Of a stretch of 201 nucleotides of DNA, positions 1 through 201 are shown piece by piece. This DNA is from Escherichia coli. GTDB lineage: Bacteria > Pseudomonadota > Gammaproteobacteria > Enterobacterales > Enterobacteriaceae. A model generated the notes under the pieces. The model was not told where the DNA came from. It saw nothing but the letters and a program-made list of their open reading frames with translations, and did not search any database. The DNA lies in NCBI RefSeq assembly GCF_003334385.1, contig NZ_QOWN01000233.1. One strand, given 5' to 3'. The position numbers and the translations under genes were made by a program. The stretch's first letter is position 1, and every line of letters begins with the position of its first letter.

Positions 1-30
1 ACAGTCCGTCACCCCGTGCTCAAAGCGCCG
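1..30 (-). other. Probable N-terminal edge of the NlpC/P60 (C40) peptidase-like domain, with a candidate catalytic Cys encoded at window 1-3 (RRFEHGVTDC)
   Basis: Seen in sequence: minus-strand codons from 28-30 (CGG, Arg) down to 1-3 (TGT, Cys) encode RRFEHGVTDC. Established knowledge: NlpC/P60 enzymes use a Cys-His-His/Asp catalytic core with the Cys near the domain N-terminus, often preceded by Asp. Inference: the domain boundary and the catalytic role of this Cys cannot be confirmed because the rest of the domain, including the His, lies outside the window. Confidence 0.5.
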
Positions 31-201
31 TCCTGTCAGATGTGGCACACAGCGGAATTTGTGAATGTCACCCCGGCTGACCAGCCACCAGGGCAGTGCG
101 CTTTTTATCTGCAGCCGCCGGTCGGCCTCGCTCAGCCAGGGCAGACCACCGGGATGACTGTGGACCAGTGCCACAATCTCCCCCTGCATCTCTGCCCGCA
201 G
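1..201 (-). CDS. Internal fragment (5' and 3' ends both outside window) of a lambda gpK-like phage tail tip assembly protein K: JAB/MPN metallopeptidase-like domain followed by the start of an NlpC/P60 (C40) peptidase-like domain
   Basis: Seen in sequence: the minus-strand frame with codons 201-199, 198-196 and so on has no stop across all 67 codons. Third-codon-position GC is about 70% against about 63% overall, and CTG is the dominant Leu codon (7 times), as in enterobacterial coding sequence. The other two minus frames contain TGA stops. The translation carries the JAMM motif HSHPGGLPWLSEAD and ends in FEHGVTDC. Established knowledge: lambda K-family proteins combine an N-terminal JAB/MPN domain with a C-terminal NlpC/P60 domain. 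Inference: assignment to the K family is from motif and architecture recognition, not from a search. Confidence 0.85.
   Translation of the reverse strand, partial: MRAEMQGEIVALVHSHPGGLPWLSEADRRLQIKSALPWWLVSRGDIHKFRCVPHLTGRRFEHGVTDC
121..162 (-). other. JAMM/MPN+ zinc-coordinating motif H-x-H-x7-S-x2-D (His-Ser-His-Pro-Gly-Gly-Leu-Pro-Trp-Leu-Ser-Glu-Ala-Asp), apparently intact
   Basis: Seen in sequence: minus-strand codons CAC(160-162) AGT CAT(154-156) CCC GGT GGT CTG CCC TGG CTG AGC(130-132) GAG GCC GAC(121-123) give HSHPGGLPWLSEAD. The spacing matches the canonical JAMM signature exactly (two His, seven residues, Ser, two residues, Asp). The preceding residues IVALV (window 163-177) form the hydrophobic strand that usually leads into this motif in JAB domains. 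Confidence 0.8.

Follow-up and report, generated by a model that had tools for sequence, protein, structure and literature searches.

A 9-bp direct repeat in the lambdoid prophage gene K as a probable coincidence of codon use at two unrelated Leu-Pro-Trp tripeptides

The exact 9-bp direct repeat in a 201-nt stretch of Escherichia coli DNA (the window, i.e. the whole stretch that was analysed) is very probably a coincidence of codon use at two unrelated Leu-Pro-Trp (LPW) tripeptides. The repeat would be a by-product of coding, with two unrelated LPW tripeptides in the JAB domain of the tail tip assembly protein K sharing the codons CTG CCC TGG. The first LPW would occupy the variable spacer loop between the zinc ligand His70 and Ser78, and the second LPW would correspond to a conserved [LVI]-P-W motif that enters the next core beta-strand. 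The Leu codon CTG would simply be the dominant Leu codon of the gene, and the Pro codon CCC may be favoured in front of TGG by a known context bias, as CCC-TGG contains the Dcm site CCTGG. Such a bias would make identical codons more likely, and no function of the repeat would be implied. Seen in this way, the repeat has no biological standing of its own and contributes no element, mechanism or variant.

The 9-mer CCAGGGCAG is present in exact copies at positions 88-96 and 136-144 of the plus strand, with a start-to-start distance of 48 nt, and the match stops short of 10 nt. Only frame 1 of the minus strand is open over all 201 nt (translation LRAEMQGEIVALVHSHPGGLPWLSEADRRLQIKSALPWWLVSRGDIHKFRCVPHLTGRRFEHGVTDC). 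The remaining two minus-strand frames are interrupted by stop codons, and the plus strand has a single ORF, of 30 codons. In the open minus-strand frame, both copies are read as CTG CCC TGG, i.e. as Leu-Pro-Trp. The original prediction had described an exact 9-bp direct repeat with copies 48 bp apart and in the same frame, each encoding LPW, and it was correct in every detail. A search of the window with Tandem Repeats Finder revealed no tandem repeat. A second exact 9-mer pair, GTCACCCCG, is unrelated to the repeat under study. The elements are located as follows:

Positions 136 to 144, minus strand: repeat copy 1 (first in reading direction), CTG CCC TGG, encoding L74-P75-W76, positions 4 to 6 of the 7-residue JAMM spacer.
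Positions 88 to 96, minus strand: repeat copy 2 (second in reading direction), CTG CCC TGG, encoding L90-P91-W92.
Positions 8 to 16 and 67 to 75, no strand assigned: further exact 9-mer pair GTCACCCCG, with a distance of 59 nt between its copies, which are not in the same frame.

The gene in the window can be assigned by sequence to the already known tail tip assembly gene K of lambda. The window shares 99.5% identity with the K genes of E. coli prophages, 98.5% with that of phage BP-4795 and 86.1% nucleotide identity with lambda K over 201 nt without gaps. Of the 5,426 complete E. coli genomes, 3,832 contain K-like matches, which add up to 11,377 places. The full K protein has 247 amino acids, is annotated as 'C40 family peptidase' and matches PHROG 30 'minor tail protein'. 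It contains a Prok-JAB domain (Pfam PF14464, residues 3-105, E = 9.7e-16) followed by an NlpC/P60 domain (PF00877, residues 111-224, E = 2.9e-13), and the window covers the end of the former, with the JAMM motif and the helix and strands behind it, and the start of the latter. The gene is flanked by L upstream and I-J downstream, in the order H (tape measure)-M-L-K-I-J in BP-4795 and in E. coli 2012EL-2448. Thus, the two domains, the gene order and the 86% identity to lambda K bear out the earlier assignment to a lambda-type K. The coding features are:

Positions 1 to 201, minus strand: codons 55-121 of the lambdoid prophage tail tip assembly gene K, assigned from the open frame, homology, Pfam and gene order.
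Positions 121 to 162, minus strand: JAMM zinc-site motif H68-S-H70-x7-S78-x2-D81 of the JAB domain, assigned from alignment, Pfam and fold matches.
Positions 1 to 3, minus strand: Cys121 (codon TGT), a catalytic-type Cys at the start of the NlpC/P60 domain, invariant in the 103-sequence alignment A2 and assigned with PF00877.

The JAB + NlpC/P60 architecture of the lambda protein (TAPK) was described by Iyer, Burroughs and Aravind (2006; PMC1779556), who proposed that protein I, which is ubiquitin-like, is processed by the JAB domain. A role of K in tail tip assembly and a peptidase action on protein I are proposed functions, as predicted in the literature. In alignment A2, the residues E19, H68, H70 and D81 of the JAB domain are invariant and conservation of S69 and S78 is 90% or higher; in the NlpC/P60 domain, D120 and C121 are invariant, and H187, H199 and H200 are at least 90% conserved. 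Lambda gpK resembles the K protein of the window in that it combines JAB/JAMM and NlpC/P60 domains, is encoded between L and I-J and carries both LPW tripeptides. Other peptidases of the PF14464 family, such as PfJAMM1 (5LD9/5LDA), DSY2949 (2KKS) and AMSH, share the E...HxHx7Sx2D motif and the fold with K. The hydrophobic strand after the Asp helix is also found in 2KKS, in which LSYLIIS aligns to LPWWLVS. In contrast to K, the PfJAMM1, 2KKS and AMSH relatives lack a fused NlpC/P60 domain, and an LPW in the 7-residue spacer is found only in the lambda-like subgroup. The C-terminal half of K from Cys121 onwards matches the NlpC/P60 (C40) peptidases, for instance E. coli MepS/Spr, in fold and Pfam family. 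This domain is irrelevant to the repeat, which is located entirely in the JAB domain.

The two LPW tripeptides differ in conservation. A homologue search among 1.84 billion cluster representatives yielded 2,825 relatives with E values of up to 0.001, and the best 150 of them were taken; the counts given here refer to 113 aligned sequences, i.e. the query and those 112 hits among the best 150 that comprise 200-290 residues. In this set, from the best 150 of 2,825 relatives, L occupies position 74 in only 10 sequences (P 25, S 18, T 17), and at position 75 there is a P in 40 and an A in 30. At position 76, the six most frequent residues are E, A, Y, H, R and Q and do not include W. An LPW at residues 74-76 is restricted to lambda-like sequences among the same 113. 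By contrast, position 90 is occupied by L, V or I in 100 of the 113 sequences (66, 20 and 14, respectively), position 91 by P in 80 and position 92 by W in 97 and by F in 7, again among the best 150 of 2,825. In this alignment, the first LPW is lineage-specific and not conserved, and the second one, as [LVI]-P-W, is a hallmark of the family. The location of the first LPW inside the JAMM motif had been recognised before, and it does lie in the spacer of HxHx7Sx2D. It had also been suggested to check whether the second LPW is conserved, with a lack of conservation pointing to simple coincidence. Conservation of the second LPW proved to be strong (W in 97 of 113), and as a refuter the check was aimed at the wrong copy. 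It is copy 1, the LPW of the JAMM spacer, that is unconserved among the 113 sequences from the best 150 of 2,825. For mutagenesis, the [LVI]-P-W after the Asp helix would be a better target than the lineage-specific LPW of the spacer.

The predicted structure separates the two tripeptides as well. An AF2 model of K that was built on 103 sequences (mean pLDDT of 97.5) places residues 74-76 in a loop (residues 70-78) between the strand formed by residues 62-69, which ends in His68/Ser69, and the Asp81-bearing helix (residues 79-88). L90-P91 form the turn after this helix and W92 is the first residue of the strand comprising residues 92-96. In fold, the N-terminal half of the model matches PfJAMM1 (5LD9), AMSH and 2KKS, and its C-terminal half matches NlpC/P60 enzymes of the MepS/Spr type. 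No solved structure of K itself was retrieved, as the sequence search gave only 2KKS and the fold search only generic JAMM and NlpC/P60 structures. The two LPW tripeptides are structurally and evolutionarily unrelated.

The alleles of the two copies were also compared at the DNA level. Copy 1 is identical in all 82 close loci and is also CTG CCC TGG in lambda, cdtI, 2B8 and PhiR29_1. Copy 2 is identical in 78 of the 82 close loci, and the other four have one ambiguous base, CTGTCCTGG, CTACCCTGG and TTGCCGTGG, respectively. Copy 2 is TTG CCG TGG in lambda, 2B8 and PhiR29_1 and TTG CCT TGG in cdtI. These four form the VQSD-LPW class, and the IKSA-LPW class with CTG CCC TGG comprises the window, BP-4795, Stx phages, PhiR12_1 and Stx1_14744. 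Thus, lambda K differs from the K gene of the window in having TTG CCG TGG at the second LPW, a DNA match of 7/9, and VQSD instead of IKSA upstream of it. As judged from these alleles, the exact DNA repeat is confined to the IKSA class and would reflect synonymous choices in one lineage. The original prediction had favoured a coincidental reuse of preferred codons. Coincidence was the right idea and CTG is indeed the preferred Leu codon (20 of 23 Leu codons in K). CCC is a minority Pro codon, accounting for 3 of 14 Pro codons in K, all three of them within the window, and for 13 of 75 in the annotated tail genes of the E. coli 2012EL-2448 prophage. A reuse of preferred codons alone is therefore insufficient to explain the repeat because CCC is not the preferred Pro codon.

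How often such a repeat arises by chance was estimated in several ways. On average, 0.15 exact 9-mer direct pairs are expected for independent, identically distributed bases and 0.14, 0.16 and 0.25 for mononucleotide, dinucleotide and codon shuffles, respectively. The earlier estimate on the order of 0.1 pairs was right (0.14-0.25). At least one exact pair occurs in 9.7% of the mononucleotide, 11.1% of the dinucleotide and 15.8% of the codon shuffles, and an in-frame pair is present in 11.9% of the codon shuffles. At the protein level, a repeated tripeptide is found in 28% of shuffled 67-residue fragments and in 99.5% of shuffled full-length K sequences; the real K protein has three of them, namely ERY, LPW and ASA. 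Given two LPW tripeptides, all of their codons would agree with a probability of 0.27 under the codon usage of the K gene itself. Hence, an exact 9-mer repeat is not statistically remarkable and chance suffices to explain it. The GTCACCCCG pair is read as R-G-D in one copy and as H-G-V-T in the other on the coding strand. Since this pair is out of frame, no coding explanation is possible for it; it appears to be due to pure chance and can serve as an internal control for chance repeats. Only about 3% of the nucleotide and 6% of the codon shuffles contain two exact 9-mer pairs; to find two of them in the 201-nt window is thus somewhat uncommon, which counts against pure chance.

The two copies also have a methylation site in common:

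Positions 88 to 92 and 136 to 140, no strand assigned: Dcm/EcoRII site CCAGG in each repeat copy, 2 sites against 0.69 expected from composition.

Very-short-patch (Vsr) repair restores CCWGG from CTWGG and biases oligonucleotide frequencies in E. coli. It is conceivable, albeit rather unlikely, that the codon identity is a convergence via Vsr repair, with CCC being favoured as CCTGG is restored from CTTGG. The annotated tail genes of the 2012EL-2448 prophage (L002) encode only these two Pro-Trp dipeptides, and both use CCC, as compared to 13 of 75 Pro codons overall. Across all fetched loci, CCC precedes TGG in 24 of 31 distinct Pro-TGG contexts, which are non-independent sites, as compared to 26% of the Pro codons overall. 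These numbers give only a hint of a context effect of CCC before TGG on codon identity. If true, Dcm and Vsr would shape the codon choice before Trp in genes of coliphages and their hosts, a minor extension of the known bias.

A rival reading holds that copy 2 of the IKSA class was converted to copy 1 by micro gene conversion, or that both copies converged through Vsr repair. It is very unlikely to be correct. Copy 2 departs from the allele of the lambda class at exactly two synonymous positions, and these make the copies identical. The minority codon CCC at both Pro-Trp dipeptides and its enrichment before TGG in the fetched loci also fit this idea, as do the 18 CCWGG and 0 CTWGG sites in 6.2 kb of L002 (single-strand count). 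However, a Markov-3 model already expects 19.9 CCWGG sites and thus covers the observed number, and the 31 Pro-TGG contexts are not independent of each other. Moreover, the differences in copy 2 lie within a patch that is generally divergent between the classes (ATAAAAAGCGCA vs GTGCAGAGTGAT), so that ordinary divergence or mosaicism explains them, and a conversion tract of 9 bp is indistinguishable from chance.

It is also very unlikely that the repeat acts as a slippage or deletion hotspot. Direct repeats of such length and spacing are able to support replication-slippage deletions. The 9-bp repeat could accordingly drive RecA-independent 48-bp deletions or duplications at a relevant rate and give rise, e.g., to JAMM-dead K variants; a 48-bp deletion would preserve the reading frame and eliminate both Ser78 and Asp81. 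In the expected 48-bp deletion or tandem-duplication allele, the junction consists of a single CTGCCCTGG copy, and 44-nt junction queries were built in such a way that normal alleles cannot seed the 28-nt word. The deletion query had no full-length match in the 5,426 complete E. coli genomes with their 11,377 K-like places, the duplication query had no match in the same genomes, and degenerate patterns for both junctions retrieved nothing from IMG/VR. The deletion query gave one 28-nt partial match (H103). It is limited to the left portion of the query, ends one base beyond the repeat copy and fits a single-base variant rather than a deletion. To be detected in these searches, an allele must have an exact 28-nt word (E. 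coli) or the exact degenerate pattern (IMG/VR) in common with the predicted junction, and rare or divergent deletion alleles could escape them. At the level of close relatives, all 82 loci align to the window without gaps. The H70-W92 distance amounts to 23 residues in 92 of the 113 aligned sequences from the best 150 of 2,825 relatives; the exceptions in this set are insertions of one to four residues or chimeric ORFs, and a loss of 16 residues occurs in none of them. The suggested check for length variation ending at the repeat copies was thus carried out on K homologues and uncovered no 48-bp or 16-residue event. The proposed slippage or deletion hotspot was not substantiated either, as such alleles are absent from the E. 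coli genomes, from IMG/VR and from the 82 ungapped close loci. It has to be noted that absence in genomes is no measure of the mutation rate because selection would purge the loss of Ser78 and Asp81.

The only indels found at the repeat copies are 1-nt deletions in a single locus, and these are sequencing errors. The cluster representative P0018 appears to be frameshifted at both copies. Its DNA (L089) derives from a 5.5-Mb contig of assembly GCA_910593955.1 (CAJVAO010000001.1, K homologue at 1356-2090) and lacks one nucleotide in each of the two copies (CCC-GG instead of CCCTGG). The locus contains no CCWGG site in 3.7 kb, and indels are present at five of the nine CCWGG sites of the closest reference. 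In addition, there are several further indels in homopolymer runs, and the tail genes are fragmented. Given that all CCWGG sites are lost, that homopolymer runs carry indels and that the tail genes are broken, the indels of L089 and P0018 were dismissed as real variation. Nanopore consensus errors at Dcm-methylated motifs have been described (Wick et al. 2019; PMC6591954). The deletions of L089 resemble these errors in lying exactly within the CCWGG of both copies, and the locus most likely stems from an unpolished long-read assembly with Dcm-motif errors. Indels at these 9-mers in public assemblies can thus be Dcm-motif errors and not slippage. The frameshifted ORF of P0018 nevertheless stands as the representative of a 50% cluster in the protein library.

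Base substitutions at the Dcm sites were also considered. If the methylated C of the non-coding strand were deaminated, the TGG codon of Trp76 or Trp92 would become the amber codon TAG. In lacI, amber hotspots were reportedly traced to the deamination of 5-methylcytosine at Dcm sites by Coulondre and co-workers in 1978. CCWGG is common to those hotspots and to both repeat copies, but amber alleles were not found here: among the 5,426 E. coli genomes, there was no record at least 99% identical to the mutant 65-mers for TGG-to-TAG changes at W76 or W92.

Three chimeric ORFs are present among the cluster representatives. In P0058, K residues 1-85 are followed by a C-terminal part that is I-like. 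P0022 combines an I-like sequence with K residues 118-222, and P0053 combines the N-terminal part of K with an unrelated sequence. Their breakpoints never coincide with a repeat copy. They may represent K-I fusions, degraded prophages or misassemblies. K-I fusions have been noted previously (Iyer et al. 2006; PMC1779556).

It is extremely unlikely that the coding sequence is overlaid by a functional nucleic-acid element, e.g. an mRNA hairpin or a motif for protein binding, of which the repeat forms part. The mRNA strand folds with a z-score of -2.19 and 5 of 200 shuffles fold as well; a long hairpin (window positions of about 62-149, minus strand) takes in both copies, and positions 71-80 and 132-141 form an imperfect inverted repeat. 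However, the G+C content is 63%, an alignment of eight sequences contains no compensatory changes (covariation term of -0.02 kcal/mol), its consensus structure differs from the single-sequence fold, and copy 2 varies synonymously between the allele classes. The matches to Rfam are far under the gathering scores (E values of 0.18-0.66). The RNA element was rejected for the lack of covariation, the differing consensus fold and the sub-threshold Rfam matches.

There is next to no chance that a 16-codon unit was duplicated inside the JAB domain and that LPW is its surviving remnant: although the spacing is in frame and amounts to exactly 16 codons, and a Leu follows within two residues of both copies (LPWL/LPWWL), the 18-nt flanks on each side share only 7 of 36 bases, at or below the random level, with no extension of the match to 10 nt, the copies occupy non-equivalent elements in the AF2 model (the JAMM spacer loop versus a turn and a strand start), the JAB domain is an old single domain with the same topology in PfJAMM1, AMSH and 2KKS, and the first LPW is missing from most relatives and the second is conserved (113 aligned sequences from the best 150 of 2,825), which argues that the two did not arise together. 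An internal duplication, which the original prediction had already regarded as the less likely possibility, is thus ruled out by the flanks, by the AF2 model and by the contrasting conservation of the two copies.

The codon-use coincidence at two unrelated LPW tripeptides thus stands as the preferred reading of the repeat. Two further observations concern tail genes around K. In the prophage of E. coli 2012EL-2448, a gene annotated as porin OmpC is located between M and L (L002, 4269-5432); it is absent at the same place in BP-4795 and looks like a moron-type insertion inside the tail cluster. In BP-4795, K is annotated as ORF70 (L001, 2620-3501), a 'putative tail fiber component' of 882 nt, and shares 128 nt with the L gene upstream of it. 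The start of ORF70 is probably over-extended because K is called at 744 nt in the RefSeq records of E. coli.
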